Shown: positions 5,412 through 35,970, counted from the first letter of the whole stretch. The stretch: DNA of 62,615 bases, filler included, from Stramenopiles sp. TOSAG23-2 (GCA_900128395.1; 11 parts of 11 records of this genome joined end to end with filler, not necessarily neighbours in it); one strand, 5' to 3'. Notes: a model not told the origin generated them from the sequence alone. A program made the numbers and translations.

Positions 5412-6854
5412 TCAATCATTCATCTGATCATCTGACCAAAATGTCTTCTTCATAGTCTTTTTACGATCCATTTTCCCAACATGATAATCTCCATCATTTT
5501 TATTTGCATGCCTTCCTAAATTATGGGAAGTCGTATGAAGTGCAATAGTACCCTTTGCAACTTGGCTTAATAAATTTGCTTCTTGCTTATCTTTTTCTAA
5601 TGACATCCATTTTCCCAACATGATAATCTCCATCATTTTTATTTGCATGCCTTCCTAAATTATGGGAAGTCGTATGAAGTGCAATAGTACCCTTTGCAAC
5701 TTGGCTTAATAAATTTGCTTCTTGCTTATCTTTTTCTAATGACATTGCAAACGACGAACGCCGTGTACCTCGCGTTTTCAGGCGTTTAAGCAAGTCATCA
5801 AGCGTTTTCAAAACGGTATCTAATGTTTTCGGTTTGGCAACACTTTTTATGTTGCATAAAAATGTTGATTGTCGTTTTACTAATATTTTTGAATCTTTTT
5901 TCATAGCAGTTGTTAAATCATCAATCTCCGCTTTAAATACAAGTGTATACTTCGCTTTTGCACCTTTGCCATGCTTTTCACCAAATATAAGTAAATCTTT
6001 AAATAGAAACAATGTACAATTTTTATGTTTTTTCATCTTATTACGTTCTATAATTTCTATGACGCATCCTGGTATTTCTGTTGCATAAACACGTGATGCT
6101 TCTACAATTTGTTCAGATGGGAAATAATTTTGTATTTTCCAAACTGCACGTTGATTTTCCATACGCCGTATACTTTCATTGACATCCATTGTGACATCCG
6201 CTAACAATGCGACACAGCGTTGTAATGGCTCATAATCATCATGATACGTAGACGTATGCTTCAATAATTCTTGTATTAATAATTTATAACGTGGAATACG
6301 TTGTACAGGTTGAATTAACAAACTTTCTAATGTTAATGCACCTCGCAAAGATCTTTTTTTTTCTATCGCCTCAATAAATTTTTTAAAATGTTTATTTTTT
6401 TTCAGATGTATAATTTCATCAACAGCTTGCATATGATTCCCTGCATAGAATGCATAACCTCTTAAATATGGTGCCATTTCTAAAAATGCCAATGCAATCA
6501 TAAACGAATTTTCAGTGACACTACTTGATGCATTTGCATCTCTTCTCAATATTTTCAATAAATGTTCAGAATGTATACGTTTTAACGTTTCTAAATTACC
6601 AAAAATTCTACGTACAGAGTCATATGTTATAAAACTATTTTCTTTTTCACATTCTCTTTGTAATGGTTTGTAATATTCTTCAATGATTTCGTTCAATGCG
6701 CCAACGTATGTTTCCTCTGTTTTCAAAATTTCTTTGCATATTTCTGCACGTGCTGCTAGCTTTTTTCTCTTTAAATCTCCATTTTCACTGTAAAAAGAAA
6801 CAGATTTTGGCAATAAAGAATTATTTTTTTTATTATTATTATTACTATTATTAC

Positions 6855-14622: not shown

Positions 14623-14839
14623 AGTCTGAAAACATGCTTGATGTATATATGTTAAAAGATTTTACATAATAGTATTTTAAATTGCAACATTTTTATATTT
14701 TTTATTGTATTTTCTCAACGCTTTTTCTACCATTGACCTACCAAACCCTTCTTCACGAAATTTCAATGTTCCATATATTTAAATATCTTAATTATATACT
14801 CTAAGTACAAACAAATCCTATCAAAAACATTCAGAAACA

Positions 14840-14995
14840 ATGGTCAAATTTACATCAAAATCCGAAGTAGCACAAGCCTGCATGACTGCTATTCACTATA
14901 ACAAATTGCGCACCAAAATCAGCAACAAAAAGTATGCCAAACTAGTCAAAACAGTAGAGGCCGGCTATAAAAATGGTACTATCGAGAGTGTATGA
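14840..14995 (+). CDS. Small hypothetical protein (51 aa, MVKFTSKSEVAQACMTAIHY...)
   Basis: Read manually from ATG 14840 to TGA 14993-14995, with an A-rich leader. It falls below the ORF-track cutoff. Confidence 0.4.
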   Translation: MVKFTSKSEVAQACMTAIHYNKLRTKISNKKYAKLVKTVEAGYKNGTIESV

Positions 14996-16080
14996 TTAGC
15001 AACTCGTGGCATTTTTAGGCTTGGATAAAACTGGCATTTCGGGACTCGTGCCATTTTTTTGCCCATTCTGTGTGATGCTAGCCCTCCCAAAGATTTTTTG
15101 CAAGGTTCTATCCTAGTGCTATGCTGGAACTCCCATTCTATTTACATAGTAACTTCCCAAAGATTTTCGGTACTTGTACGTACTCTAGAGCTCCTATCAC
15201 TATAAAACCCTAACATTTCGGGTACTATCCTTAAAAACGAGCCATCAACACCAAATAACATTACATATACCACACGTTCACCTCAAATATCCAAACATCG
15301 AGAGACATTGCCATGGTATAATACATTTAATATATCGTAAATATAAAGGACTCATCTCTCTTCCACATGTTCTATAATCAGCAATATTATCAGAGTCTTC
15401 AAAATATAAATTATTTTTTTTAAATGGAACACATGTTCAATTTCTATTATGAATAGTGTTAATAAATTAGTATAAAACTTTATACCTATCAAACTCGATT
15501 ATAATGACGGTCTGTGCCGGTTTGCATCAAAATCGCCCGACGCTCCGCGGCATGCGCGGTGCAGTTTAGCAACACTATAGTACTTAATGTGCTGCCAAAT
15601 GAAAAACCATTTTCTAGGCTGTTTTACCTATTGTCGCTGCCAAAGTTACCTATCACAAGCAGCTAGCACAGGATAGCACAGGAAAACTGGCTCATAATGG
15701 TATATCCACGCTACGGTTTTTGGTACTTTTGGTCCTTAAAAAATACTTACACAGTTGCTAGGATATATGTATTGTAACAAGTGCAAATATATCTATACTA
15801 TAACCTGAAGCGTTGGTTCTAAAACACATCGACACAACATTACTAGTATGGATTTCCAAAGATTTGACTATAAAAAGCAAATGTCGTTGTACATGATTTA
15901 CAACTTCAAAACAACTTGCCACCAACGTAGACATAGGCAACTGTATAAATAAATAATTAAATGTAAATTAATAAAAAGATTGTATGCAATTTCCTCAAAA
16001 CACTTGGCATAAGCGAAACACCCACAACGAATCAAATAAAAAAAGACAGTATAGATGAAAATAATAAACGTAACGGACAT

Positions 16081-17070
16081 ATGAAGAAACAAGCATTGAA
16101 AAACTTAAATGTCTTGCGGAAGAAGAAAGAAGTGAAAAAAGTTACGCTGCAACAAGTGTCTTCGACACGTGATATGATTTTCTTGGGCACTGCGAGAGAA
16201 GTTGGCACAGTAGAAAACCTTGCAAAAACGAAACATGATAACAGGCGTGTTGGTTGTGGCAAGCTTGTTGCGTGGGAGATGCACGAGAAAATAAGAGGAA
16301 AGACTCCACATTGGACGAATAATGGTGATGAAAAATCAGCAATAAATTACACACCCGGTGGCAATTGTGAAAAACAGCATAATAAAAATATTAATTGCGC
16401 AAATTCTACAAAAAATACTGACCATATCATTGTGTCTAAAAAATATAGCAGTCGTAGAACAAGTAACAAAAAGAACAAAGAGAAGGATAAAATGAAAAGG
16501 ATGGAGCAGCAAATTGCAAATAGTATAAGAAATTTCGTTGCTCCGGTCGATGCAGAAGACAATTCTTCGTTGAACAGAACGCCTAAAATCCTCGAGACGT
16601 TAAAACTGATGAAACAAAAGCAAAGACGACGGCGTAAAGGTTGCAAAAAAAGTACCAAAGCCTTTAAACAAAATAACAAAGTAACTAAAATTTTGAAAAA
16701 GAAACAAAAGAGTCCAACAACTAAAACGAGCGAGAAGCAGAAAAAGCAGCCCAAAATTGCAGCTGCTAAAACGAGCGAGAAACCACAGCCTCAAGTGTTG
16801 GGGGGAAATGATGTAAAGCAGGAATGCAAAACACCCAAAACAGAAACGAATGTTCATTACAAAAATGTTCAGGTGCCGGAAAATGTGCGGAAGGCGTGGG
16901 ATACGCTGGATCGGTTGGATGAACCAAATGAAATCTCACCCTTTCAAGGGTTCTTTAGTTATAGCAACTCTGACGCTGTGGGTTTGGTGAGTGATAATGT
17001 GCAAATTGATATCGTCAGTTTATTAAAGGATTTTGTTGCGAATGAACGAGTTGAAGTTGAGGTGGCGTAA
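16081..17070 (+). CDS. Hypothetical Lys-rich protein (putative viral)
   Basis: 329-aa ORF with a basic low-complexity middle and no recognised domain. Confidence 0.6.
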   Translation: MKKQALKNLNVLRKKKEVKKVTLQQVSSTRDMIFLGTAREVGTVENLAKTKHDNRRVGCGKLVAWEMHEKIRGKTPHWTNNGDEKSAINYTPGGNCEKQHNKNINCANSTKNTDHIIVSKKYSSRRTSNKKNKEKDKMKRMEQQIANSIRNFVAPVDAEDNSSLNRTPKILETLKLMKQKQRRRRKGCKKSTKAFKQNNKVTKILKKKQKSPTTKTSEKQKKQPKIAAAKTSEKPQPQVLGGNDVKQECKTPKTETNVHYKNVQVPENVRKAWDTLDRLDEPNEISPFQGFFSYSNSDAVGLVSDNVQIDIVSLLKDFVANERVEVEVA

Positions 17071-17277
17071 TGGAAGACATCCATCCACATAAATTCGGTG
17101 CCATGCATGCCCCACGCTGATCATCTATAGGGGTGAGACCAATGCACAAATATTTATATATATATTATTTTGGCGTTTGGGGGCATCTTCATATCCCATG
17201 CTAATGATGGCACCCAAAGGTCTCTTGCATCAGAGAAAAGATAGTATATATACAAAATTTTGCCCCTAAAAAAATAC

Positions 17278-17916
17278 ATGTTTCAACACAGCACCACCGA
17301 GATTTACAACAACGAAATTATTTTTTTTGGAAGACAAGAAACTGGCAAATCTGTTGCCGTGAGGATCCAAGGCTATCAACCACATGCTATCATCCGGTGC
17401 TCTGCACCACTGGACACAGTTTCGTCTGTGCTAAAACAAGCAGTGAGTGAAAATTACATCTGGAGAAGAAACACCCAGCATAACGAACACCTGAACTTAG
17501 GGTCGTTTCATGATGGTATTTGTGTGAAAGAGACGAAAGGAAGGTCCATTACAAGTGCGGAGAAGGAAGAAACGTTTTTTAAAGTAACAGCCAACAACAT
17601 TGATATCTTCACCTGCCTTGAACATGTGTTGCAAAAACGGTATAGTTACATTTACAAACAATATCACGATGGTTCTTATGTGTCAAGAAGAAAGTCGTTA
17701 ACTCTGTTTGTGGAACGATTTGACCGCGTATCGCTGCTAACTCAATACTGTGTGGTAAATAATATTGCTACATGTACCACACTGAGATGGATGGGTACAG
17801 AAGCAAACCAAAAAATAACAACATGCGACAAAGAAATCGAAGGAAGTGAAATTAACATGACCCCGGCTAGACCGCGAAACCACCCGACGACCAACCACCC
17901 CTGCCTACTAAACTAA
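17278..17916 (+). CDS. Stand-alone protein resembling the N-terminal domain of family B (delta-like) DNA polymerase
   Basis: IIFFGRQETGKSVAVRIQGYQPH, FFKVTANN, LLTQYCVVNNIATC and KITTCDKEIE follow the order of PolB/Pol-delta N-terminal motifs. No exonuclease or polymerase motifs follow. First ATG at 17278. Confidence 0.6.
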   Translation: MFQHSTTEIYNNEIIFFGRQETGKSVAVRIQGYQPHAIIRCSAPLDTVSSVLKQAVSENYIWRRNTQHNEHLNLGSFHDGICVKETKGRSITSAEKEETFFKVTANNIDIFTCLEHVLQKRYSYIYKQYHDGSYVSRRKSLTLFVERFDRVSLLTQYCVVNNIATCTTLRWMGTEANQKITTCDKEIEGSEINMTPARPRNHPTTNHPCLLN

Positions 17917-17918
17917 AC

Positions 17919-18371
17919 CTAGATCTTCTTCTCGATTCGCAACCTTTTGTAGCCCTCACCAGTGTCCTGTATTATTCCCCGCATGAACTCTCGGTATCTC
18001 GCATCGGTGGCGTTCAACATCTGGATACCAAACTCATGGTTTAGAAATTCTTGTACCTCCAAAAAAAGGCTGCGACGAGAATACGCCCTGCGGGGTATTT
18101 TGCGGTAGTTCTTCTCAAAAAAATCTCCCAGTACCACTTGCAAATCCACCTTTGGCGGCGGGCGCTCGTACTTCCTCAATTTCGCTTCTAGAAATGACAC
18201 GCGCAACAGAAGCTGGCTGCAATCTTGGCATCCAACCAATTCGTGCACCAGTTGTTTTGTTTGTAACATCCTGCCGTTGTGCAATACGAAGTCATAGCTT
18301 CTCAACTTGTTTAGCATCTCTGGGTTGTGGAACCTTTTGCCAGTGGATAAATATTGTCTGATATCATCCAT
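17919..18371 (-). CDS. Hypothetical protein; CxxC plus C-terminal segment resembling a D5/primase-helicase-type winged helix
   Basis: 150-aa ORF ending 2 nt from the convergent gene. It contains CQDC and the pattern DFFEKNY...SRRSLFLEVQEFL...GYKRLRI. Confidence 0.55.
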   Translation of the reverse strand: MDDIRQYLSTGKRFHNPEMLNKLRSYDFVLHNGRMLQTKQLVHELVGCQDCSQLLLRVSFLEAKLRKYERPPPKVDLQVVLGDFFEKNYRKIPRRAYSRRSLFLEVQEFLNHEFGIQMLNATDARYREFMRGIIQDTGEGYKRLRIEKKI

Positions 18372-18404
18372 TTTATTTGTATGTATCCAGTTTAAATACA
18401 GGAT

Positions 18405-18842
18405 TCAATCAAACACATAAGGTTGAATTGGTTCGATTGCTCGTTTCGGGACTGTTTTTAGTTTGTTCGCGATAGAAATTTTGTGCTGGCTGAGTCGCAT
18501 CCATGCATTGATTGACGTGGCTTTCATTCCGTTTTGATAAATATCATCAAGCAGCCGTGATTGCATGGTTTTGATTGTTCGGATATCCTTTGTAATACAA
18601 CCTCTTAAAGACAATAGATGTTGATCAAAATGTACTTGGAAGTCATTGAAATCAATGTCTTTATGTTCTTTGTCCAACGGCTGGTTCGTGCGTTTACGAA
18701 AGACGTCGTACATGATCTTATACATGTGTCTTTTCTCGGAACAATCAGATAGGTTGTCGTGCATTTGCAGCAAGTAATCGACATTCGTATGATTGCACAA
18801 AAAGCACGTGGGTTGATCATCGTCAAGGTTCAATACACTCAT
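18405..18842 (-). CDS. Hypothetical protein with CxxC...HxxxH putative zinc site
   Basis: 145-aa ORF with CFLC near the N-terminus and VHFDQHL, followed by amphipathic helices. Confidence 0.6.
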   Translation of the reverse strand: MSVLNLDDDQPTCFLCNHTNVDYLLQMHDNLSDCSEKRHMYKIMYDVFRKRTNQPLDKEHKDIDFNDFQVHFDQHLLSLRGCITKDIRTIKTMQSRLLDDIYQNGMKATSINAWMRLSQHKISIANKLKTVPKRAIEPIQPYVFD

Positions 18843-19064
18843 CTCTCATGTGAAATAAAAAAAGGAGGATATATATACAACATTATGGTAGAACATCGTG
18901 GCGTAAAATTCATTGGATGCAAGCACAAACAGCAGCCAGCCGCAGGCGAACATAATAAACAACAACAGTGAAATCTTTCAACATACAAAAAAGAATCCAG
19001 TGGATATCAAACTTTTGGAAAACAGAATAATGAAGGTATATATACTTTAAATTGATTAGTCAAG

Positions 19065-19400
19065 ATGAAAATTACAAAACGACACACCGACTTACTGGAC
19101 AAGGTATGCAAAGCATTTCACTTTCACAATGCATTGGACACTACCACTGTTATTTCAAGAAACGACGCGGTAGCTGCAATCCCGGTGATACTGAGCCTAA
19201 AGCAACAGCTATTGAAAGAATACCCATACGATTTTACATTAAAATTGAAAGGCGCTTTTGTGGACGATCCCAAATGGGCAATGACTGTGCTTCGGCAGCT
19301 AATGCGTGCGCACAAGCGCAGGGTAATCAGTGAGAGAAAGTACAAGTGGTGCAAAGCAAAACAGAAGAGTGTGTCGATGTACAGATACAATTTGTTGTAA
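19065..19400 (+). CDS. Small basic protein resembling a conserved large-DNA-virus hypothetical family
   Basis: 111 aa with KWAMTVLRQLMRAHKRRVISERKY...YRYNLL, recalling the ITxLRQ..R...Y.L.S.EK...Y pattern I remember from NCLDV ORFs (not searched). Confidence 0.6.
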   Translation: MKITKRHTDLLDKVCKAFHFHNALDTTTVISRNDAVAAIPVILSLKQQLLKEYPYDFTLKLKGAFVDDPKWAMTVLRQLMRAHKRRVISERKYKWCKAKQKSVSMYRYNLL

Positions 19401-19494
19401 AGGGTATCTAGGTTCTTTCTTTTTGGCGTCAACCCTTTCTGCAACTATAAGTAAGACCAAACTATATAAAATTAATAAAGTGCATATTTGTTGC

Positions 19495-19788
19495 ATGATG
19501 AATGTTTTATGTGTACACGCTGTCGAACTCTACACTGTGCTATATTTGAGTTTCTTAAGTTGCTGTGTTTTCTATTGTGATGAACAAGTAACATGGTCGA
19601 TTGTTCTTCAACTGTGCATATATGAAATGGCATTGGTGTCATGCCTCAACCATGTCCAACAGAACGATTCCATTTTCTCCCTCAATCGTTGTAATGGTGC
19701 ATGGTGGAATTGTTTTCCTTTGTTGCACGTGATTTTTTCCGCGTTGCTTCGTATGCTTCTGCCAGTTGATCAAAATTTTTTACTGTAA
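19495..19788 (+). CDS. Small hydrophobic (2-3 TM) hypothetical protein
   Basis: 3' part of ORF 19330-19788. The ATG at 19495 lies 32 nt after TATATAAA at 19463. Confidence 0.45.
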   Translation: MMNVLCVHAVELYTVLYLSFLSCCVFYCDEQVTWSIVLQLCIYEMALVSCLNHVQQNDSIFSLNRCNGAWWNCFPLLHVIFSALLRMLLPVDQNFLL

Positions 19789-20471
19789 TTCGTCTCACAC
19801 TTTGCAATGGTTTGATTCAACTTCACGCGCTCTTCTAGCAAAAATTTCCCCTCTTTAACAGCTTGCTTCAGGCTGGTTTGCGCTTCCCTTAACAACTTCA
19901 AGCGCTTCAAATGTCTATCAAAGCTTTTCAACGCAGCTTTGTGCTTTTCAATCTCCTTAGTTACCTGACAAAGTTTTTTATCGGAATTTTTTTTTTTCAT
20001 AGTAGCATCTCTCATGCGTAAAAGCGGCTGCTTTAAATTTTCATCATGGATAAACGCACGGTCACTGCACTCTTTTTGCTTTTTACCAAGTGTTATCTTG
20101 TTTGCGCAAAGCAAATCACCGTCTTGTTTTTTTAACAAAGGGTTGTGTTCTGCTGATATCCTTGCAGGTAATTTTACAATGGCGTCTCTTAAGTCCCTGA
20201 TTTTACACAGTTCTTTCTCTTGAACCTCATGAAAGGCGCCATGTTCTTTCTTGATATGAACATGCATAATTTTGATAGTATGTTGATAGTGTTTACACAT
20301 ATCCATTGCTACCTTTGCTTCCGTCTTCATGCTGCTTATCTGTTTATTTAACTCGGCACGAGTTGCCTTGGCCGCAATATGTTCTTGCTCGTAATTCATC
20401 TGGTTCCAATCCACACCTCGAGACAATTCAGAAATCGGAGCTAAAATGTCCTTGGTTCCATCACCCTCCAT
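19770..20471 (-). CDS. Coiled-coil hypothetical protein
   Basis: 233-aa Lys/Glu/Leu-rich ORF with heptad character. Confidence 0.55.
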   Translation of the reverse strand: MEGDGTKDILAPISELSRGVDWNQMNYEQEHIAAKATRAELNKQISSMKTEAKVAMDMCKHYQHTIKIMHVHIKKEHGAFHEVQEKELCKIRDLRDAIVKLPARISAEHNPLLKKQDGDLLCANKITLGKKQKECSDRAFIHDENLKQPLLRMRDATMKKKNSDKKLCQVTKEIEKHKAALKSFDRHLKRLKLLREAQTSLKQAVKEGKFLLEERVKLNQTIAKCETNYSKKF

Positions 20472-20741
20472 GGCATCATTGGATACTTCGCGTTTTATCC
20501 TCGACGGAGTTGTGGTTGTTGTTGGTTGGAACAGATCGCATATATATTACAATTGCAAGTAAAAACAATACTTAAATGTAGCTATTACTGTTGTAAAATT
20601 TTTGATAAAAGTATATAGTGGTACTTTGTTCTTTATACCCCCATTTCAGGCTTTACAGTCTTCTATTTGCTTCGTTCGGTTTGTAATATCTTGGTCCACA
20701 CATGCGTTCGCGTCCATAGCAAGTCGAAAAGACCGCATATA

Positions 20742-20930
20742 TTACAATTGCAAGTAAAAACAATACATAAATGTAGCTACAACTATTGTAAAAATTTTGA
20801 TAAAAATATATAGTGGAATTTCGTATTCTCTAAAATACGCCCAGCACACATACAATAAAAAGTACCAAACACCAGCGTGAGCTGGAAAATTCGGATGGAA
20901 CAACACTTCGAAAAAACGTTCAGGATCCAT
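20742..20930 (-). CDS. Small two-TM hypothetical protein
   Basis: 62 aa with an ATG start and two hydrophobic segments. Confidence 0.45.
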   Translation of the reverse strand: MDPERFFEVLFHPNFPAHAGVWYFLLYVCWAYFREYEIPLYIFIKIFTIVVATFMYCFYLQL

Positions 20931-21040
20931 GTTTCCGTTTCTCTTGTTGGTATTTTCTTTCTAGATGTTTTTACATTAAGAAGTATTCGATAAAATATAA
21001 CAAGCTATATTTATAATAGTGTATTTCTAACACTTAATGC

Positions 21041-21178
21041 ATGCGAAAACGAACAACACAACGTGCAAAACAACAACGGGAGGGAATACTCGAGAGGTTG
21101 TTCGTAGTAGTCTACAACAATTACGAAACCTATGTGAGGACATTTTATCATCGAAATAGCATTGGTCGAAAGCCATAA
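21041..21178 (+). CDS. Small hypothetical protein (45 aa, MRKRTTQRAKQQREGILERLF...)
   Basis: Read manually. TATATTTATA at 21006-21015 lies upstream of the ATG. Confidence 0.35.
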   Translation: MRKRTTQRAKQQREGILERLFVVVYNNYETYVRTFYHRNSIGRKP

Positions 21179-21316
21179 ACAGCCGAACACGGCATATTTG
21201 AAGAATAGGAAGGATTGTAATGTGTGTATGGGATGGGCGTAAACAAGTACACGATGTGCAATAGTCAAAAGTATAAGAAACTACAACACAATGCATTTTA
21301 CACACACACGCAACTA

Positions 21317-21827
21317 CTACAAGCTAACCGTTACCGTATCGCCTTTCGTTTTCGTATTCTTCACGTCTGGCGCGGTCGCCTTGCGTTTCGTCTTCCTTTT
21401 TTCTTCCTTCGTCGCGTTTGCTGCTTGGACTTTCCTATCTATCTCGTTGCCGCCGACCAGTCCCTCTTTTCTCTCTCTCTCTCTCTCTTGTTCCCGTAAC
21501 TTTTTCTTCTTTCTTTTGTCCGCCAATTTTTGAATCTTTATTTTAATCGTCCTCTTTTTTTTCTTCATCTTGCTTTTTATGTTTATCACTGTCCCCAACG
21601 ATGGCCCATCCTTCACCGCAACGCCACCCTTTCCCTTGACGTTGGTATCAGTAGTCGTAGTTTCAGCCTTATTTGGATTCTTCTTCTTCTTTCCACTAGC
21701 TGGTGGAAAAACCACGGTTTTCTTAGGTTTGGCCGAAAATAAATGATTTGCCAATGCACCTTCATTCAATGACAACCTTCGCGTATTCTTAACCGCAATG
21801 GATTTCGGGTTAACAACAGACGTGAAT
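21317..21827 (-). CDS. Lys-rich hypothetical protein, 5' truncated by the contig end
   Basis: The frame of ORF 21317-21775 stays open to the contig edge (…FTSVVNPKSIAVKNTRRLSLNEG…). Confidence 0.55.
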
Positions 21828-21927: not shown

Positions 21928-22189
21928 GCTGGACAGCACCTACTACAGTATATTCTATCCTAATCGGCCTTACCTTAACCTGTGGCACTGTGGTAAAATA
22001 ATAATAGCTACTAATAATAATTAATAATAATCTTAATAATAAATCTTAGTTTATTAATTTAAATTATTAGATACATACTGTATATATTCCCATATACATA
22101 TATATATATATATATATTTGACACTACACATATATACAATACAAAATTATAAATACATGTAATATCTACAAACTACCATCATATAAGAC

Positions 22190-25100
22190 ATGGCAGAAGA
22201 AGAATATGTGCGTGTACGCTTTCGCGTTGCAGTGAATACGGAGTTAGGGGATACCGTACATATATTAGGAGATCAAGAATTAGGTTGTTGGGATAAAAAT
22301 AAATCCGTAGTATTAGTTACAACGCCAGCATCTTATCCAATATGGCAAACATCTAGACCACTACGTTTACAAAAAGGTGTTCGTTTACGATACCGATATG
22401 CCATTTACAATGCTGGTAAATTTCAAAACTGGGCAAATAATACGACTGAAAACAGTGGATATCATCATCTAACGCCTACACTTAGTTTCGATATCAACGA
22501 TCCTATTTTAAGTTTTAATAAAGACTATGATATGACAGTTCAAGATACTAATTTATTAGTTGCAACTATGGAACAAAATGATGGTAATAGCACTGCTGGT
22601 GATGCCGGTGGAAGCAACGATGATGCTTTGCAAAATACAATTACTCGAAATAGCCCTACTACTTTAATATCGGAATTTGTACGTGAAAATGATAAAGTAA
22701 ACAATATTGATGAAGAGGATGACGATTATGAAATTGGACTCAACGAGGATTTAACTTCGCGTGAACTGAGACGTCATAAAACTGGTTCTGTCAATACAAC
22801 TGCAAAACGTGTCTTTTTAGTTACATACAATTTACCCCTAGTGATACGATATACCGTTAAGGGGAAATGGGACGTAACGTGGGATTTGGATCAATTAAGT
22901 GCACGTAGTGAAAATAGTATTGCTGATAAAATGGATACATTATGGATTGGTGTTGTTACTGGTGTATTTGTTGAATCGACGAAGAAAAATTTACGTACGG
23001 ACGATTTAACAGATGAGCAACGAAAAACGTTGACGGAAAAATTAAAGTCAATGGATTGCTATGCTGTATTTGTTGGCAGCAAGGTTCATGAAGATTTTAA
23101 TGTTGGATTTTGCAAATCCGTCTTATGGCCGATGTTGCATAATGCACAAGCGCTTACGCATTTAAACGAACAAATGCGTGATTATAAAAAATATTGGCTT
23201 GGGTACCAACGTGTAAATGAATTAATTGCTGCTCGCGTTGCAAATTTATATAAAGAAGGGGATTTTATATGGATCAATGATTATCATTTATCATTACTAC
23301 CACGAGCGTTAAGAACACGATTGCGAGAAGAATCTGTTACTATTGTTATTTTTTTCCACGTTCCATTTCCAACATCAGAAGTATTTCGATCATTACCAAC
23401 AAGAACGGAGATGTTGCAAGGTATATTAGCTGCAAATGTTGTTGGGTTCCATACATTTTCACATGCAAGGCATTTTTTAACTGCATGTGCTAGATTTGTT
23501 GGAGTAGGATCGCAAAGTCAAATGGGTGACTTGTGCATCAATTACGAAGGCCGCAGTGTCATGGTATGTACCAATCATGTTGGCATTGAATCAGCAATGA
23601 TTATGCGAGAATCGAAATCGAAGCCCGTAGTCGCAAAGGCAAAAGAGTTACGAGCGAAGCACAATGGGCGAACATTATTTGCATCTTTTGAATATTTACA
23701 ACGTTTGAATGGGGTAGCATTAACATTATTAGCGTATGAAATCTTTTTACAAACGTATCCACGCCAACGTTCGAAAGTATGTCTTGTTATGCGATGTGCA
23801 GAAATTGATGAAAGAAAACACGATTCAGACAAGACGAAGGGGGAGTGCGAGGAATTAGTTGCTCGTATAAAGAAACAATTTGGTGAGGAAGTGATCGATT
23901 ACGAGTCATTTTCAACTGGTATCAATGGATGGCAATTTGACTTTACACGGAATGATCGTTTAGCATTGTGGGTAGCCAGTAAAGTACTAATCAAAACATC
24001 TGTACAAGAAGGTTTGAATATGACTCCGTTAGAATTTGTATTAGTCAAAGAACCACCTAATGAAGGTATTGTTGTTCTGAGTGAATTTACCACCGCATGT
24101 GCTGTTTTAAATGGTGCTATTCGAATTAATCCATGGGATATGAAAACGGTCGCAGATACATTATATCAAGCGTATCAAGCTGGCAATGTAGAATGTAGAA
24201 AGCGTCGTGCGAGAGATGTAGAATATATTTCAATGCTACCGTCGTCAGAATGGACAAATCGAATTTTACTTGATGCAGAAAGAACGAAAAGATCAACGGA
24301 TGCAACTGATATGGAGGAATTAAGGCCCGGTCAAAGGCGCGTTTTAAGGCGTGGTGTAATGAAATTAGATGCAGCGTCAGTCAAACGTAGCATAGCTTCT
24401 GCAAAAGATGAAGGAAGACCGTGTGTATATTTATTTGACTACGGGGGGACATTAATACAACGTGAAAATTCAAATAAGCAAAACAAACAACAGTTTTTCG
24501 GTGTGACACGAAGAGCGCCAAGTGAAATGACTAAAAGATGGTTGCGAGAATTATGTTCAAATCCTATGAATGCAGTTTTTGTTGTAAGTGGTGCATCAAC
24601 AAAAGTGTTAAATAAAAATTTTGGTGAGATAGCAAGATTAGGCTTAGCGGCTGAGAATGGCATGTATTTTTCTTGGGATTCTAGCAACGCTAGTAAAACA
24701 AGATTAGAAAGGAATTTTAATGAAGAACCTGATGATGATAATCAAGCAAATCAACCATTTGCTCCTCAAATGGTACGGCGTAATTTTTCAAAGCATGTGC
24801 GGAAGTATAAGGATTTGGATGTCACAATTGGAGGGAGGTTTGGTCGCCAATGGGCTGGATTAGCAAATACGAATGATTCCAATGATTGGTTAGAATGGAA
24901 AGCAACTGCAATTCCAATTCTACAAAATTATACAAGTAGATGTGCAGGGTCTAGATTACGCACCTCGGAAAATCATTTAAGTTGGGATTTCCGATTAGCG
25001 GATCCTGAATGGGCTAAAATCAATGCGAAACATTTAAAAACTGAATTGGAAGAAGCATTGGCAGAACATGATGTGACAATAGAAGTATGGAAAGGATCGG

Positions 25101-25426
25101 TCAATGTTATACCTAGTGGTATGACAAAAGGCTTAGTAGTTGAACATATTTTAGAGGAGGTTCAAAATATTTATGGACGCCGTGCTGGTATGATATTTTG
25201 TATCGGTGATGATCTTGCAGATGAATCAATGTTTGAAGTTTCATTAGAATATGAAAGCGAAAAATTAAAGCAACGAAACAGAAATGATACAAAACGTGTA
25301 TTTACATGTTGTGTTGGTAAGAAACCTAGTAGAGGTGAATATTATGTAAATAATGTCGATGATGTCCAAAATTTATTAAGAGATTTAGTCCAAGGAAGTG
25401 GTTTAGATTTGCAAGGATATTTTTAA
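22190..25426 (+). CDS. TPS: Trehalose-6-phosphate synthase/phosphatase-family protein with N-terminal CBM20
   Basis: CBM20-like start (TELGDTVHILG..ELGCWD...YPIW). GT20 motifs GFCKSVLWP, WINDYHL, FFHVPFPTSEVFR, LSEF, GAIRINPWD. HAD-type C-terminus LFDYGGTL, LAAENG, IGDDLADESMF. Confidence 0.93.
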   Translation: MAEEEYVRVRFRVAVNTELGDTVHILGDQELGCWDKNKSVVLVTTPASYPIWQTSRPLRLQKGVRLRYRYAIYNAGKFQNWANNTTENSGYHHLTPTLSFDINDPILSFNKDYDMTVQDTNLLVATMEQNDGNSTAGDAGGSNDDALQNTITRNSPTTLISEFVRENDKVNNIDEEDDDYEIGLNEDLTSRELRRHKTGSVNTTAKRVFLVTYNLPLVIRYTVKGKWDVTWDLDQLSARSENSIADKMDTLWIGVVTGVFVESTKKNLRTDDLTDEQRKTLTEKLKSMDCYAVFVGSKVHEDFNVGFCKSVLWPMLHNAQALTHLNEQMRDYKKYWLGYQRVNELIAARVANLYKEGDFIWINDYHLSLLPRALRTRLREESVTIVIFFHVPFPTSEVFRSLPTRTEMLQGILAANVVGFHTFSHARHFLTACARFVGVGSQSQMGDLCINYEGRSVMVCTNHVGIESAMIMRESKSKPVVAKAKELRAKHNGRTLFASFEYLQRLNGVALTLLAYEIFLQTYPRQRSKVCLVMRCAEIDERKHDSDKTKGECEELVARIKKQFGEEVIDYESFSTGINGWQFDFTRNDRLALWVASKVLIKTSVQEGLNMTPLEFVLVKEPPNEGIVVLSEFTTACAVLNGAIRINPWDMKTVADTLYQAYQAGNVECRKRRARDVEYISMLPSSEWTNRILLDAERTKRSTDATDMEELRPGQRRVLRRGVMKLDAASVKRSIASAKDEGRPCVYLFDYGGTLIQRENSNKQNKQQFFGVTRRAPSEMTKRWLRELCSNPMNAVFVVSGASTKVLNKNFGEIARLGLAAENGMYFSWDSSNASKTRLERNFNEEPDDDNQANQPFAPQMVRRNFSKHVRKYKDLDVTIGGRFGRQWAGLANTNDSNDWLEWKATAIPILQNYTSRCAGSRLRTSENHLSWDFRLADPEWAKINAKHLKTELEEALAEHDVTIEVWKGSVNVIPSGMTKGLVVEHILEEVQNIYGRRAGMIFCIGDDLADESMFEVSLEYESEKLKQRNRNDTKRVFTCCVGKKPSRGEYYVNNVDDVQNLLRDLVQGSGLDLQGYF

Positions 25427-25495
25427 AAAGAGAGGGAGCGATATTTTATTACGCGAGTATAAATTACATATTTCTCTTTATATATATATATAGCA

Positions 25496-25547
<52 letters not shown>

Positions 25548-25616
25548 TGCTATATATATATATAAAGAGAAATATGTAATTTATACTCGCGTAATAAAAT
25601 ATCGCTCCCTCTCTTT

Positions 25617-28600
25617 TTAAAAATATCCTTGCAAATCTAAACCACTTCCTTGGACTAAATCTCTTAATAAATTTTGGACATCATCGACATTATTTACATA
25701 ATATTCACCTCTACTAGGTTTCTTACCAACACAACATGTAAATACACGTTTTGTATCATTTCTGTTTCGTTGCTTTAATTTTTCGCTTTCATATTCTAAT
25801 GAAACTTCAAACATTGATTCATCTGCAAGATCATCACCGATACAAAATATCATACCAGCACGGCGTCCATAAATATTTTGAACCTCCTCTAAAATATGTT
25901 CAACTACTAAGCCTTTTGTCATACCACTAGGTATAACATTGACCGATCCTTTCCATACTTCTATTGTCACATCATGTTCTGCCAATGCTTCTTCCAATTC
26001 AGTTTTTAAATGTTTCGCATTGATTTTAGCCCATTCAGGATCCGCTAATCGGAAATCCCAACTTAAATGATTTTCCGAGGTGCGTAATCTAGACCCTGCA
26101 CATCTACTTGTATAATTTTGTAGAATTGGAATTGCAGTTGCTTTCCATTCTAACCAATCATTGGAATCATTCGTATTTGCTAATCCAGCCCATTGGCGAC
26201 CAAACCTCCCTCCAATTGTGACATCCAAATCCTTATACTTCCGCACATGCTTTGAAAAATTACGCCGTACCATTTGAGGAGCAAATGGTTGATTTGCTTG
26301 ATTATCATCATCAGGTTCTTCATTAAAATTCCTTTCTAATCTTGTTTTACTAGCGTTGCTAGAATCCCAAGAAAAATACATGCCATTCTCAGCCGCTAAG
26401 CCTAATCTTGCTATCTCACCAAAATTTTTATTTAACACTTTTGTTGATGCACCACTTACAACAAAAACTGCATTCATAGGATTTGAACATAATTCTCGCA
26501 ACCATCTTTTAGTCATTTCACTTGGCGCTCTTCGTGTCACACCGAAAAACTGTTGTTTGTTTTGCTTATTTGAATTTTCACGTTGTATTAATGTCCCCCC
26601 GTAGTCAAATAAATATACACACGGTCTTCCTTCATCTTTTGCAGAAGCTATGCTACGTTTGACTGACGCTGCATCTAATTTCATTACACCACGCCTTAAA
26701 ACGCGCCTTTGACCGGGCCTTAATTCCTCCATATCAGTTGCATCCGTTGATCTTTTCGTTCTTTCTGCATCAAGTAAAATTCGATTTGTCCATTCTGACG
26801 ACGGTAGCATTGAAATATATTCTACATCTCTCGCACGACGCTTTCTACATTCTACATTGCCAGCTTGATACGCTTGATATAATGTATCTGCGACCGTTTT
26901 CATATCCCATGGATTAATTCGAATAGCACCATTTAAAACAGCACATGCGGTGGTAAATTCACTCAGAACAACAATACCTTCATTAGGTGGTTCTTTGACT
27001 AATACAAATTCTAACGGAGTCATATTCAAACCTTCTTGTACAGATGTTTTGATTAGTACTTTACTGGCTACCCACAATGCTAAACGATCATTCCGTGTAA
27101 AGTCAAATTGCCATCCATTGATACCAGTTGAAAATGACTCGTAATCGATCACTTCCTCACCAAATTGTTTCTTTATACGAGCAACTAATTCCTCGCACTC
27201 CCCCTTCGTCTTGTCTGAATCGTGTTTTCTTTCATCAATTTCTGCACATCGCATAACAAGACATACTTTCGAACGTTGGCGTGGATACGTTTGTAAAAAG
27301 ATTTCATACGCTAATAATGTTAATGCTACCCCATTCAAACGTTGTAAATATTCAAAAGATGCAAATAATGTTCGCCCATTGTGCTTCGCTCGTAACTCTT
27401 TTGCCTTTGCGACTACGGGCTTCGATTTCGATTCTCGCATAATCATTGCTGATTCAATGCCAACATGATTGGTACATACCATGACACTGCGGCCTTCGTA
27501 ATTGATGCACAAGTCACCCATTTGACTTTGCGATCCTACTCCAACAAATCTAGCACATGCAGTTAAAAAATGCCTTGCATGTGAAAATGTATGGAACCCA
27601 ACAACATTTGCAGCTAATATACCTTGCAACATCTCCGTTCTTGTTGGTAATGATCGAAATACTTCTGATGTTGGAAATGGAACGTGGAAAAAAATAACAA
27701 TAGTAACAGATTCTTCTCGCAATCGTGTTCTTAACGCTCGTGGTAGTAATGATAAATGATAATCATTGATCCATATAAAATCCCCTTCTTTATATAAATT
27801 TGCAACGCGAGCAGCAATTAATTCATTTACACGTTGGTACCCAAGCCAATATTTTTTATAATCACGCATTTGTTCGTTTAAATGCGTAAGCGCTTGTGCA
27901 TTATGCAACATCGGCCATAAGACGGATTTGCAAAATCCAACATTAAAATCTTCATGAACCTTGCTGCCAACAAATACAGCATAGCAATCCATTGACTTTA
28001 ATTTTTCCGTCAACGTTTTTCGTTGCTCATCTGTTAAATCGTCCGTACGTAAATTTTTCTTCGTCGATTCAACAAATACACCAGTAACAACACCAATCCA
28101 TAATGTATCCATTTTATCAGCAATACTATTTTCACTACGTGCACTTAATTGATCCAAATCCCACGTTACGTCCCATTTCCCCTTAACGGTATATCGTATC
28201 ACTAGGGGTAAATTGTATGTAACTAAAAAGACACGTTTTGCAGTTGTATTGACAGAACCAGTTTTATGACGTCTCAGTTCACGCGAAGTTAAATCCTCGT
28301 TGAGTCCAATTTCATAATCGTCATCCTCTTCATCAATATTGTTTACTTTATCATTTTCACGTACAAATTCCGATATTAAAGTAGTAGGGCTATTTCGAGT
28401 AATTGTATTTTGCAAAGCATCATCGTTGCTTCCACCGGCATCACCAGCAGTGCTATTACCATCATTTTGTTCCATAGTTGCAACTAATAAATTAGTATCT
28501 TGAACTGTCATATCATAGTCTTTATTAAAACTTAAAATAGGATCGTTGATATCGAAACTAAGTGTAGGCGTTAGATGATGATATCCACTGTTTTCAGTCG

Positions 28601-28853
28601 TATTATTTGCCCAGTTTTGAAATTTACCAGCATTGTAAATGGCATATCGGTATCGTAAACGAACACCTTTTTGTAAACGTAGTGGTCTAGATGTTTGCCA
28701 TATTGGATAAGATGCTGGCGTTGTAACTAATACTACGGATTTATTTTTATCCCAACAACCTAATTCTTGATCTCCTAATATATGTACGGTATCCCCTAAC
28801 TCCGTATTCACTGCAACGCGAAAGCGTACACGCACATATTCTTCTTCTGCCAT
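25617..28853 (-). CDS. TPS: Identical inverted copy of the CBM20-TPS/TPP gene (probably artefactual)
   Basis: Translation identical to 22190-25426; it is the mirror arm of the palindrome. Confidence 0.6.
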   Translation of the reverse strand: MAEEEYVRVRFRVAVNTELGDTVHILGDQELGCWDKNKSVVLVTTPASYPIWQTSRPLRLQKGVRLRYRYAIYNAGKFQNWANNTTENSGYHHLTPTLSFDINDPILSFNKDYDMTVQDTNLLVATMEQNDGNSTAGDAGGSNDDALQNTITRNSPTTLISEFVRENDKVNNIDEEDDDYEIGLNEDLTSRELRRHKTGSVNTTAKRVFLVTYNLPLVIRYTVKGKWDVTWDLDQLSARSENSIADKMDTLWIGVVTGVFVESTKKNLRTDDLTDEQRKTLTEKLKSMDCYAVFVGSKVHEDFNVGFCKSVLWPMLHNAQALTHLNEQMRDYKKYWLGYQRVNELIAARVANLYKEGDFIWINDYHLSLLPRALRTRLREESVTIVIFFHVPFPTSEVFRSLPTRTEMLQGILAANVVGFHTFSHARHFLTACARFVGVGSQSQMGDLCINYEGRSVMVCTNHVGIESAMIMRESKSKPVVAKAKELRAKHNGRTLFASFEYLQRLNGVALTLLAYEIFLQTYPRQRSKVCLVMRCAEIDERKHDSDKTKGECEELVARIKKQFGEEVIDYESFSTGINGWQFDFTRNDRLALWVASKVLIKTSVQEGLNMTPLEFVLVKEPPNEGIVVLSEFTTACAVLNGAIRINPWDMKTVADTLYQAYQAGNVECRKRRARDVEYISMLPSSEWTNRILLDAERTKRSTDATDMEELRPGQRRVLRRGVMKLDAASVKRSIASAKDEGRPCVYLFDYGGTLIQRENSNKQNKQQFFGVTRRAPSEMTKRWLRELCSNPMNAVFVVSGASTKVLNKNFGEIARLGLAAENGMYFSWDSSNASKTRLERNFNEEPDDDNQANQPFAPQMVRRNFSKHVRKYKDLDVTIGGRFGRQWAGLANTNDSNDWLEWKATAIPILQNYTSRCAGSRLRTSENHLSWDFRLADPEWAKINAKHLKTELEEALAEHDVTIEVWKGSVNVIPSGMTKGLVVEHILEEVQNIYGRRAGMIFCIGDDLADESMFEVSLEYESEKLKQRNRNDTKRVFTCCVGKKPSRGEYYVNNVDDVQNLLRDLVQGSGLDLQGYF

Positions 28854-29115
28854 GTCTTATATGATGGTAGTTTGTAGATATTACATGTATTTATAATTTT
28901 GTATTGTATATATGTGTAGTGTCAAATATATATATATATATATATGTATATGGGAATATATACAGTATGTATCTAATAATTTAAATTAATAAACTAAGAT
29001 TTATTATTAAGATTATTATTAATTATTATTAGTAGCTATTATTATTTTACCACAGTGCCACAGGTTAAGGTAAGGCCGATTAGGATAGAATATACTGTAG
29101 TAGGTGCTGTCCAGC

Positions 29116-29215: not shown

Positions 29216-30356
29216 AATTTTGTTTGGATGGGGCCAAGTACTATCGTCGTTTAACACAACTGTAAAGATTCCATGGCCACCGTATTTCAAAATGCTTTTA
29301 AATACCATTTATGGGCCATTTAATATCGATATTTTTGAATATTTTGGTGTTTTTCGATGCACAATCAATACAAACTATATTGCGGCTTTTCAATGGCACA
29401 TGCTTTTACCAATTGCCATGTTTAGTACGTATTTGCTGGCATTCTCATTAACATGGTTACATTATAAATGTTACAAAATATGTCCTAAGCAGAAGCACCG
29501 ACCTCTCTATAGTACACGCATTTTAATCACTAGGTTGAATAAAATGGTAACCTTTACTTGGCTACTGATGTATCCGGGAATAGGCCAACGGATTTTTAAA
29601 GTATATAAATTGACAAAGTATGGCAGCAAAGAGTACATGGATTCTGATTTATCAATTTCTAGTGATTCTGCCGAATATATCTATTTGAGAGGCTTGGCCT
29701 GGATGTTTACAGCATTTTATGTATTTGGGGTGCCATTGTATTATGGCATCAATTTATATTTAAATCGGCACATTATTCAAATGGATCCAAAAGATCAAGA
29801 CAAGCCTTTGGACGACGAAAATCGCAAGAATATTTTGAAAGTTCGAGAAACTTATGGCATTTTATATTCAGAATACGAAGCCAAATATTATTATTTTGAA
29901 GTTATCGAAATGGTAAGAAAGATCGTTCTTACTGGGGTTTTAATTCTTTTAAGTAATGGAAGCATGGTTCAAATATTCTGTGGTCTAATCATTTGCTGCC
30001 TGTATTGGATATTGATTACTGATTGGAAACCTTTAGAAAGCTCCCAAAATGATTTTCTACAACAACTTGTATCTGGTCAACTATTCTTGACACTTGGAAC
30101 AGGTATGTTATTAAAAGGTCATCTTTATGAAGTTGCCGCAGGGACAACAACTGGTATGGATAACCATGCTGTTGATATTATTTTAACAGTTGCAACTTCT
30201 TGCGTTTTCCTTATTCTCGTTTACATCATCATTGATGACTTAACTAGCTTATTTAAAAGTTGTAAATTTACAAAGACGACAGAAAAGTCGAAGGCAAAAG
30301 ATCTAGATACTAACTCCACTAAAATTGTACCTCATAAGTACCCCGACAACAGATAA
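29216..30356 (+). CDS. C-terminal multi-pass membrane domain of a large protist receptor-like protein, 5' truncated
   Basis: QVLSSF...IPWP, YVFGVP and YGILYSEYEAKYYYFEVIEMVRKIVLTG, plus 8-9 hydrophobic segments. This pattern is typical of the expanded TRP-like/GPCR-related membrane family of protists. Confidence 0.75.
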
Positions 30357-30926
30357 CATCCTCTAGTCACAGCCACTCAAAAGGTGGCAGTGAGGCGTTC
30401 AGTGTTGATAATAGAATGCAACCAGTTGGAAAAAAGAGTAAATATTGGCTGTTTTGAATCGGTTGTTTGAGAGGATTAGAGAGGATTAGAACACGTCATT
30501 GGTATACGAACGAAAAAAGCTTGAAAATATATTTGCGTGTTTGGGCGGTCATCCACTAGAAAACAAGGGTGTTCGTAAGAATAATTCTATATTTGTACAT
30601 AGTCGCCAAATACGTATGGACATTTTTTAATTGCAATGTCAACCAATATGGGAACCAACTTGGTATTGGCACCATCGTGAAAAGAAATGCTGATAAAAAC
30701 ATTTGGTATACGATATTTTCATTGAAAATTAAACGCAATAAAATCAACGTATTTTTTATTTTATTTTTTAGATTGCACGTTTTGATACAATATATAAACT
30801 GTCTCTCTCTTCTCTTCTCCAAAACCTTATGCACAATCCGTGAAATTGTTGATTGAACCACCTGTCGAATCCATTGACATGTTCGTGGTTGTTGTGGTAG
30901 TTGTGGTATCTTTTCCAGAAACTAGA

Positions 30927-30949
30927 CTAACCCTAACCCTAACCCTAAC
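30927..30949. repeat. Interstitial telomere-type repeat (CCCTAA)n
   Basis: CTAACCCTAACCCTAACCCTAAC, the reverse complement of about 4 TTAGGG units. Confidence 0.75.
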
Positions 30950-30951
30950 TA

Positions 30952-31236
30952 TATCAAATGACAAATGGCACACAATGACACATAATTGAATATGAATACT
31001 TGACAGGTGAAAATTAGACTACCACCAACTATATTTTTCATATTTCTACCTATCAAATGACAAATGGCACACAATGACACATAATTGAATATTAATACGT
31101 GAAAGGTGACAATTAGACTACCACCAACTATATTTTTCATATTTCTACCTATCAAATGACAAATTAAAATGGCACACAATGACACATAATTGAATATGAA
31201 TACGTGAAAGGTGAAAATAAGACTACCTCCAACTAC
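30952..31236. repeat. Diverged minisatellite, about 99-bp unit, about 2.9 copies
   Basis: tatcaaatgacaaat...ggcacacaatgacacataattgaatat...agactaccaccaact starts at 30952, 31051 and 31150, with substitutions and a small insertion. Confidence 0.9.
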
Positions 31237-31537
31237 ACACACAATATGATATCAAATTTATTAAGATCGATGGATTGTGTGTTGAATAATAAATGGATAC
31301 AAATTGATTGATTGATACAAAAAAACAATGACCTATCGATAGACGTGGATAGAGATAGATCTTTTTTGCATAGTTTCTTTTACATATATATATATATATA
31401 TATATATTTATAGAACGATTAATATATATATACAGAGTATTATATACATACATATATTTTTTAAATAAAGGAAAAAGCACGAGAAACAAATTATATATAT
31501 TATAATATATAATAATAATAACAAAAAATCATCAAAA

Positions 31538-33394: not shown

Positions 33395-33664
33395 AATTTT
33401 TTTTAAATTTATTAAATGACGCGATCAATTTATTTTTTGTAGTTGTTGTGTTTTGTGTATGCATAATATGTTTTAAATTTGGTACAACTCGTAAATTTTT
33501 TTTAAAAAATGTAACGTCTCTTGCTCGTAAACCTCCTCCATACATGTTTAGTTTACGAAAGAGAGTGCACCGTGTTTTAAATTTTTTTACGAGTTTGTGT
33601 GAAAATATTATTTAGTACGTCTTCTCTGTCTCTCTCTCCTCTTTCATTTACACCCACCTGCATT

Positions 33665-35161: not shown

Positions 35162-35349
35162 CTGTTTACTTTGTTTTTGTGTTGTTGTTGTTGTTGTTGT
35201 TATTTTTCTTGCATTGGAAATATTGGTTGCTCCATCGTTGTTTTCACTTTTCGTGAATATAGTATATGTTTTTTTGAAATTTTATATTATTTTTATAACT
35301 GTCTGTGAATTTGAACTAGAGAGAGAACTTGATATGGTGGTGCTCTTTG

Positions 35350-35615
35350 TATTCTAATTTCCCTATTTCAAGTATAAATTATGTGTCAACATTGATACAG
35401 TAGGTGGAAAAATCGAGGAGGAAATGAATGATATAAATTTTAATATAAGGATGAAGCATTTTTATGATTTTTGTTAATATTCTAATTTCCCATATAAGTA
35501 TAAATTATGTGACAATTGATAGGGTGAGAAATCGATGAGGAAATGAGGAAATGAAATAAGGATGAAGCATTTACATTTTTATGATTTTTTCTATGATATT
35601 CTAAATTTCCTGATA
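35350..35615. repeat. Diverged tandem repeat, about 125-bp unit
   Basis: tattctaatttccc...aagtataaattatgtg...gaggaaatga...taaggatgaagcattt...ttatgattttt occurs twice, plus the start of a third copy. Confidence 0.7.
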
Positions 35616-35970
35616 TAATGAAATAGCTAATTTCAGTTCTCTAAATCGAACTAAATCATCGTTATCCTTAACGACGAGGTAGGGTAAGTACTAGAAGTTG
35701 CTAATAGCTAATAGCTGGTTTGCGTAGAAGCATAAATTCACTACAAAATGTTTATACACTAAAATTTGAACTAATAGGTCAAATAATCATAAAAAAAAAG
35801 GCACATCAAAACGTAGGTAAATCATTTTAAAAGGGGGATAAACTTAAGGTATTTGGTGGGTGGCACGGGGCCCTAAACAACTAAACTAACTAACATGGCA
35901 ATACCATGCATGCTGGCATGCCGTTTAAAAAATAAAAATAGAAAAGAATATTTCTAGAGAGGATCGCAGT

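Follow-up and report, generated by a model that had tools for sequence, protein, structure and literature searches.

A truncated family B DNA polymerase gene on a virus-like contig, possibly of mirusvirus-like lineage, among the contigs of an uncultured marine protist

Whether a contig with no recognisable housekeeping gene belongs to the genome of its presumed host or to a virus is the question raised by one part of a 62,615-nucleotide (nt) stretch of DNA from Stramenopiles sp. TOSAG23-2 (GCA_900128395.1), hereafter the window, in which 11 contigs are joined by paired 44-N spacers and ordered by length. The third of these (14623-21827, 7205 nt, with N spacers at both ends), hereafter the focal contig, had been predicted from its sequence to be a fragment of a Nucleocytoviricota- or Mirusviricota-like virus. 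The analysis reported here indicates that the feature is real and very probably viral, and that one of its genes is the stump of a DNA polymerase belonging to family B (PolB). On balance, the contig is best explained as a piece of a large double-stranded DNA virus of a mirusvirus-like lineage, decayed, integrated or persistent, with a truncated polymerase.

The polymerase open reading frame (ORF) lies on the forward strand at 17278-17916 (alternative start at 17260), and homology upholds the description of it as PolB-N-like in the original prediction: its product corresponds to a DNA polymerase of family B in the N-terminal domain only, residues 1-194. Pfam has no match on the stump itself, and the assignment comes from its relatives, of which P0001 is 96% identical and P0002 is 54% identical and continues into the DIET exonuclease motif; PDB and Pfam scans of P0002 and P0001 give no polymerase match because the fragments are too short. 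When 1.84 billion representatives are searched with a profile of these two proteins, 26 reach E<=1e-3, and all nine of the long hits that were scanned contain the Pfam domains DNA_pol_B and DNA_pol_B_exo1, one of them together with an intein. The best solved relative of one of these proteins (P0009) is Pol delta, matched over the catalytic core only. The cysteine-rich C-terminal zinc module of the cellular polymerases delta, zeta and alpha (Pfam family zf-C4pol) is absent from 9/9 full-length relatives and from the intact polymerase described next (Pfam, E<=1e-3 or 0.1).

That intact homologue is encoded by L081, a locus of 3990 nt that was the only one found in a scan of JGI metagenome contigs; its PolB has 831 residues (Pfam 1.9e-68), and the sequence SHTDS can be seen by eye in its motif C region, as also in P0004. 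The usual form of motif C is GDTDS. The stump is 64% identical to the L081 polymerase over residues 1-194 only, the alignment ending at window position 17862. Homology ceases at 17862-17874, ahead of the DIET motif that is present in P0002, P0075 and L081, and the last ~18 codons of the stump are unrelated sequence followed by a stop. Residues 195-831 of the L081 protein leave no trace elsewhere on the focal contig (tblastn; next best E 0.23). Thus the N-terminal domain is present, but the 3'-5' exonuclease motifs (Exo I, DIET-type) and the polymerase motifs A-C are not, so that this copy would be unable to replicate by its own enzyme. The original prediction rightly saw a PolB N-terminal domain in support of a virus, but missed that the polymerase is a 194-residue stump. 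Relatives of the L081 type include many forms that end at many different residues. A related locus on an IMG/VR contig (L083:9995-13125) has a polymerase split into two overlapping ORFs of 746 and 310 residues, by a frameshift or a sequencing error.

The arrangement of genes around the stump shows what lies in place of the rest of the enzyme. In L081, a 114-residue gene (L081:2940-3284) begins 43 nt after the polymerase, and its homologue in the window is o111 (19065-19400, forward strand, 111 residues; 31% identity over 99 residues, E 7e-16), so that the ancestral order of PolB followed by an o111-type gene has been kept. In place of the remaining ~640 polymerase residues, the window has ~1.2 kb with two genes on the opposite strand, o150 (17919-18371, 150 residues, convergent with the stump) and o145 (18405-18842, 145 residues), with o111 next. 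The intact arrangement would thus be that of L081, with a polymerase of 831 residues and an o111-type gene directly after it.

Contigs assembled from independent sequencing runs, among them runs of marine DNA that have parts of the architecture in common with the window, bear on whether this arrangement is real. One contig of run X2 matches 17090-17189, continues through 1500 other letters, and then matches 17858-19117; a second covers 19098-21823 and appears to extend ~4.2 kb further. The lengths of these two contigs are 6177 and 6924 nt. The order o150-o145-o111 is present in this independent run and so is not peculiar to the present assembly, and the main strain of X2 has 1500 nt at the polymerase locus, compared with the at least 2.6 kb needed for an intact PolB. 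The whole of o150 is covered by an X2 contig, and an X6 contig covers 17937-18104 without differences; o111 is present in two variants in X2; and a 10-nt deletion in the main X2 strain at 20325, within o233 (19770-20471), would shift the frame of that ORF. Three RNA-library contigs part from the window at 17836 and 17848, each in its own manner. The one from X6, of the window's own type, continues in frame past 17848 as VSNSTVIVSI (hand translation), matching VVNSTSIVSI of L081 at 8/10 positions, which indicates that longer or intact versions of the window's type of polymerase exist in the sea. Contigs of X6 and X7 continue past 21823 with the same sequence in both runs. The 100-nt intergenic island at 17090-17189 is 98% identical in the main X2 strain, and its flanks (a 329-residue ORF and the stump) are replaced or have diverged by more than 10%. 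Taken together, we read the truncation as genuine decay or rearrangement that varies between strains, with some chance left that the join is chimeric.

The second gene that ties the contig to viruses is o145, with 41 relatives that lie mostly on short contigs; identity is 55-82% for the best 40 of them. An alignment of 28 of these sequences, all of equal length, has 48 invariant columns and 58-78% identity among variants, from which it follows that the family is under selection; its motifs are C-x-LC, H-x3-H, LSxHK and a conserved C-terminal PYxF. Among 2264 ORFs, the o145 profile finds one ORF each in G005 (E 1.3e-12) and G006 (E 6.8e-9), two large IMG/VR viral records whose polymerases are among the nearest relatives of the stump, and the four motif positions align in both; hmmsearch with the same profile finds no match in the loci sampled for the second polymerase group defined below (~960 kb), and a scan of IMG/VR for close relatives of o145 finds none. 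The structure model of o145 is all-helical (predicted local distance difference test, pLDDT, 69) and has no match in BFVD at E<=1e-3. The o145-family gene adjoins a heliorhodopsin gene in G006, and among the neighbours of its homologue in G005 Pfam recognises a RING protein only.

Codon usage sets the focal contig clearly apart from the ten other contigs, which are plainly eukaryotic and mutually consistent: Pfam domains occur in 8/10 of their long ORFs that were scanned (Tub, JmjC/cupin, RhoGEF, ankyrin, trehalose-phosphate synthase/phosphatase with CBM20, HMG box, LRR and IQ), and the long ORFs scanned have no interruption under the standard code. The GC content of the focal contig is 0.385, compared with 0.295-0.361 for the others, and GC at third codon positions is 0.45 for its eight pooled ORFs (range 0.32-0.59), compared with 0.234 for 16 pooled host ORFs (range 0.16-0.33). 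Relative synonymous codon usage (RSCU) of single host ORFs correlates with the host set at 0.67-0.94, that of focal ORFs at -0.18 to 0.59 and that of the pooled focal set at 0.48; the lowest correlation of 200 random three-gene host subsets with the remaining host set is 0.89. The codon usage of the focal contig is therefore foreign and far outside the host range, bearing out the expected difference in composition. Other proposed separators are weaker. Tetranucleotide correlations of the focal contig with the other long contigs (0.83-0.92) are only moderately lower than those among the latter (0.88-0.97), and the poly-Asn tracts and AT microsatellites indeed missing from the focal contig are missing from the contig at 36500-43670 as well. 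Coding density is host-like (~74% of 16081-21827, compared with ~75% of the contig at 1-7217, by sums of ORF lengths); it is gene size and codon usage that differ. With a PolB N-terminal domain, o111, an o145 family represented in two large viral records, and foreign codon usage, the origin in a large DNA virus put forward in the original prediction is supported.

To which lineage the virus belongs was addressed with 80 polymerase loci of IMG/VR, found with an alignment of the full-length relatives. All ten phmmer matches of the stump fall within loci L001-L009, L082 and L083, and seven tblastn matches (E ~1e-3 or better) agree; scans of IMG/VR with the stump alignment or P0004 find no close relatives. 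In phylogenetic trees, the clade of L081 and P0004 groups with 15 polymerases, separated by a split with 100% support from 55 others (FastTree, 73 rows) or 18 others (IQ-TREE LG+C20, 35 rows), and IQ-TREE places it between the clades of G006 and G005 (94% by the Shimodaira-Hasegawa-like approximate likelihood ratio test). The clade formed by the window, L081 and P0004 (831-871 residues) is 29-32% identical to the other polymerases on its side of the split. G005 is a 179-kb IMG/VR record with direct terminal repeats and G006 is one of 227 kb; of the two, one has direct terminal repeats and one is labelled a provirus.

The gene content of the records on this side of the split points away from the nucleocytoplasmic large DNA viruses (NCLDV). 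The capsid family Capsid_NCLDV (PF04451) is found in none of six related records (G001-G006, all but G005 being fragments), but gives 5-6 matches per record in 3/3 records of the other polymerase group; the A32-type packaging ATPase (PF04665) and Capsid_N (PF16903) are found in neither G005 nor G006. Heliorhodopsin is encoded in G005, G006 and G001 (L001), TBP in G006, RNA polymerase subunit B and an Snf2/RING protein in G005, and Snf7 in G005 but in 0/3 records of the other group. Ribonucleotide reductase is encoded in L083, and related loci also contain papain-like protease and patatin. Heliorhodopsin, TBP, Snf7, Snf2 ATPases, RING proteins and histones are reported as core functions of mirusviruses, Snf7 is stated not to have been found in nucleocytoviruses, and one mirusvirus order is reported to retain PolB and nucleotide metabolism that two others have lost (PMC12768974). 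Such accessory functions are found in the relatives G005, G006 and G001, and none on the focal contig. G005 and G006 look like mirusviruses. Of the two lineages named in the original prediction, the evidence therefore leans towards the Mirusviricota-like one, given the side of the fully supported split, the heliorhodopsin, Snf7, TBP and Snf2/RING genes and the missing matches to NCLDV capsid and A32; that the lineage is mirusvirus-like and not NCLDV is rather probable.

Several observations weigh against this placement or against the decayed state. The focal contig contains no capsid, portal or terminase gene, and membership of the contig and of G005 and G006 in the Mirusviricota is putative; the herpes-type terminase family DNA_pack_C (PF02499) is found in 0/5 records. 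Most related records are fragments (CheckV 7-50%), and the chance that all six miss one capsid gene is ~0.16 by hand estimate. The L081/P0004 clade sits on a stem of 2.2 changes per site in IQ-TREE, and neither tree includes polymerases of cells, herpesviruses or named NCLDV. For the structure model of the L081 polymerase (pLDDT 82), the named entries that rank first in BFVD are polymerases of NCLDV (EhV-86, Medusavirus, HaV01), with identities of 17-22%, none in the list exceeding 23%, in a database that may hold no mirusviruses. No junction to host DNA occurs in the contigs of independent runs placed on the focal contig, nor does noncoding GC reveal one, the left end (0.341) lying between host (0.294) and viral (0.365) values. 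The 10-nt deletion in o233 in X2, together with the lack of relatives of o233, leaves it doubtful whether every ORF is a gene; DNA can occur in RNA libraries, so that contigs from these do not prove transcription; and the assembly holds a gross amplification artefact, a perfect 7188-nt inverted self-copy at 21928-29115, because of which a small chance remains that the join at 17848-17918 is chimeric. Two large ORFs of G005 (1378 and 1455 residues) have no Pfam or PDB match, and the 1378-residue one has no usable match in the Atlas.

Transcription of the contig may depend on the host. A TATA-like palindrome (GTATATATAC, 17244-17253, forward strand) lies 25 nt upstream of the polymerase start codon, and similar motifs lie at 18869-18878, upstream of o145 on the reverse strand, and at 19036-19045, upstream of o111 on the forward strand, so that the motif precedes three focal start codons by 25-34 nt; the same motif precedes the L081 polymerase. 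In the window, GTATATATAC occurs 18 times with at most one mismatch, compared with 3.7 expected, and none of 100 shuffles reaches 18. In host contigs it tends to lie ~100-110 nt upstream of long ORFs (e.g. 22080, 31424, 44796, 9641), as would be expected of a strong TATA-box consensus in this protist. Two runs from different studies, both made from poly(A)-selected seawater RNA, have contigs over 16236-17180 (X6 and X7, in pieces), 17168-17836, 17937-18104, 19621-20385 (X6) and 21238-21823 (X6 and X7); stretches without them, such as 18238-19442, are neutral. The TATA-like motifs and the poly(A)-library contigs over most ORFs fit nuclear transcription by host machinery, and we infer that the genes would be transcribed in this way. 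A copy with no working polymerase of its own must be replicated passively or by other enzymes: it may be replicated as integrated DNA, by host nuclear enzymes, or with help from an intact relative.

That this copy is defective or decaying is probable, and several signs are those expected of an endogenous element: the truncated PolB, a 51-residue ORF cut at 14994, the 10-nt difference in o233 and a degenerate tandem copy at 20542-20629. A competing view of its state is a free, currently replicating virus (an infecting, an attached or an ingested one) from a lineage that truly lost its working polymerase and relies on host nuclear replication, the stump being a leftover. The equal length and purifying selection of o145 across 28 variants are as in active viruses, codon usage has not drifted towards that of the host, poly(A)-library contigs of both RNA runs overlap its ORFs, the main X2 strain has no room for an intact PolB, and PolB is reported to be missing from two major mirusvirus orders, for which nuclear replication is predicted (PMC12768974). 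A free virus is nevertheless unlikely, since the contig bears no virion gene, the X6 contig that continues past 17848 shows that longer or intact polymerase versions coexist, relatives break off at many different residues in a manner that looks like decay or chimeras, and o233 has a frame-shifting deletion in X2. Also improbable is a reading in which the lineage has been caught giving up its own DNA polymerase, with intact, longer-remnant and 194-residue versions at the same locus in related strains, or, more boldly, in which the stump serves as first exon and the remainder of the polymerase, from another locus, is added to it by joining of RNAs, as reported for mirusvirus terminases. The notion of an amplification or assembly chimera that placed o150 and o145 behind residue 194 of an otherwise intact polymerase draws on the inverted self-copy elsewhere in the assembly and on the three RNA-library contigs that depart at 17836-17848 in three ways, but it needs two joins. 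Across the right-hand one, between o145 and o111, runs the independent X2 contig over 17858-19117; the same contig leaves no more than 1500 nt between 17090-17189 and the stretch from 17858, which would not accommodate an intact polymerase, and no trace of residues 195-831 is left on the contig. Such an artefact is very unlikely.

Ribonucleotide reductase, papain-like protease and patatin are common in giant viruses, and this speaks for a giant virus of the Nucleocytoviricota, not a mirusvirus-like one, as the source of the fragment, be it endogenous or free, as do the NCLDV polymerases that head the named BFVD matches. Mirusvirus and NCLDV polymerases are reported to be related (PMC10827195), and heliorhodopsin is reported from a few NCLDV lineages (PMC12768974). 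What makes an origin in this phylum doubtful is that Capsid_NCLDV is missing from 6/6 related records, one of them with direct terminal repeats, where 3/3 records of the other group have 5-6 matches each, that neither A32 nor Capsid_N is found in 2/2 records, and that G005 encodes Snf7. Ordinary cellular DNA, from the protist or a contaminating eukaryote with fast-evolving orphan genes, would account for the 5/8 focal ORFs without detectable relatives, for the TATA-like motif shared with host genes and for the host-like coding density; it is hardly credible in view of three genes with viral relatives, one of them syntenic with an intact viral-type polymerase, and of codon usage far outside the host range. 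The mirusvirus-like fragment with a truncated polymerase is thus preferred, and this copy is probably rearranged and decaying, whether integrated, persistent or defective.

Comparison with known systems shows both likenesses and differences. The contig resembles the PolB-bearing mirusviruses ('Demutovirales'; PMC12768974) in that its polymerase and o145 group with records that bear heliorhodopsin, Snf7, TBP, Snf2/RING and RNA polymerase B, in its marine setting and in its very few annotated genes; it differs in its divergent, long-branched polymerase and in that neither an HK97 capsid nor a portal, triplex proteins or a terminase was observed. Okeanovirales and Styxvirales are reported to be intron-rich mirusviruses with genes inside introns, a trans-spliced terminase and no PolB (PMC12768974). 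The contig would share with them that the host replicates the viral genome, that an essential gene is broken up by unrelated ones from the other strand, and that transcripts are polyadenylated, but it keeps the 194-residue stump, and no canonical GT...AG is present at the RNA-contig departure points 17836 and 17848, unless three bases match there by chance. Endogenous elements of Nucleocytoviricota, such as the giant ones of protists and algae, have a delta-like PolB without the cellular zinc module, foreign codon usage and fragmented genes in a protist assembly, as here; the differences are that the related records have no NCLDV capsid or A32 where the sister group matches the capsid, and that no NCLDV hallmark is present on the contig, a Pfam search of which gives no double-jelly-roll capsid. 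Endogenised mirusvirus sequences in eukaryotic assemblies have abnormally short marker ORFs (PMC10827195), and the short ORFs of the focal contig in a eukaryotic assembly are a likeness to these. Because abnormally short mirusvirus ORFs are described there from many eukaryotic assemblies, this type of virus is already known; the present member, its polymerase clade and the o145 marker appear to be new. Titles and abstract openings of papers on viruses in single-cell genomes of uncultured flagellates contain no description of the polymerase clade or the o145 family, though supplementary tables on mirusviruses might list them.

The remaining features of the contig are as follows. Eight plausible ORFs and one 51-residue ORF fragment were recognised; none of the nine ORFs scanned reaches the Pfam cut-off, no meaningful PHROG match was obtained for the seven scanned, and Rfam (E<=1) and tRNA scans of the contig give no match. 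The dense packing of short ORFs claimed at the outset holds in that eight are plausible and that 2 nt separate the convergent ORFs that end at 17916 and 17919; an overlap at 19770-19788 is unreliable because it rests on a GTG-started hydrophobic ORF (19330-19788) that shares sequence with o111 (19065-19400) in a different frame and is unlikely to be a gene. No long ORF occurs in the left 1.4 kb, which includes the 51-residue ORF (14840-14995, forward strand), apparently the truncated start of a longer gene. Between 14676 and 15345 the depth of X2 contigs is 173-498, compared with ~27-32 over 17756-21827 (6-15 times deeper); X2 and X3 contigs leave the window sequence at 14676, 14994, 15122 and 15170, and after 14994, the stop codon of the 51-residue ORF, both runs have the same alternative continuation, in which the frame stays open by hand reading. 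This segment may be a repeat of the virus or the host, or a very abundant unrelated element; no repeat is common to the focal and the other contigs that would link them. Further right are a lysine-rich ORF of 329 residues (16081-17070, forward strand; no Pfam family, function not assigned), and on the reverse strand o233 (233 residues, coiled-coil-like, coding status doubtful), a 62-residue membrane-like ORF (20742-20930) and a lysine-rich ORF without its 5' part (21317-21827), the frame of which is open to the contig end. A tandem duplication at 20542-20824 (88-nt copies, 90% identity, 195-nt spacing) covers the 3' end of the 62-residue ORF and a TATA-like motif. No function is assigned to o145 or to o150, which has no Pfam family and no close relative in IMG/VR; a resemblance of o150 to archaeal hypothetical proteins (best Atlas score 0.80) was treated as chance. 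No relatives of o233 were found among proteins of 128-408 residues, and it has no similarity to the 235-residue ORF of L081.

Repeats were also observed in the host contigs. The 7188-nt contig at 21928-29115 is a 100% inverted self-copy over its full length, a hairpin chimera of amplification or assembly and not a gene duplication, and for this reason its two 1078-residue trehalose-phosphate synthase ORFs are mirror images. An inverted repeat (37034-37850 and 38794-39616, 70% identity over ~860 nt) links the ORFs at 37026-37934 (reverse strand) and 38710-40395 (forward strand), which are probably paralogous copies, divergent and head to head, of a host gene without annotation. Tandem duplications of 86-244 nt, perfect or nearly so, at 240-471, 5466-5745, 51492-51663 and several sites in 29216-36399, some inside long ORFs, may be real coding repeats or assembly stutter.

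The hosts of mirusviruses are described as largely unknown, with one characterised chromosomal integrant (PMC12768974; PMC10827195). A viral fragment among the contigs of what is likely a single-cell protist assembly would point to a candidate host for a divergent branch that bears a polymerase; the contig is a lead to a virus-host pair, not proof of one. The o145 family offers a new conserved marker with which to fish for the group, being widespread in marine data, present in two large viral records and not found in ~960 kb of NCLDV-type loci. A polymerase stump beside intact relatives bears on the loss of replication genes when large DNA viruses move to the nucleus, and if either polymerase loss or a split gene were true, this uncultured marine protist would give the lineage a host.

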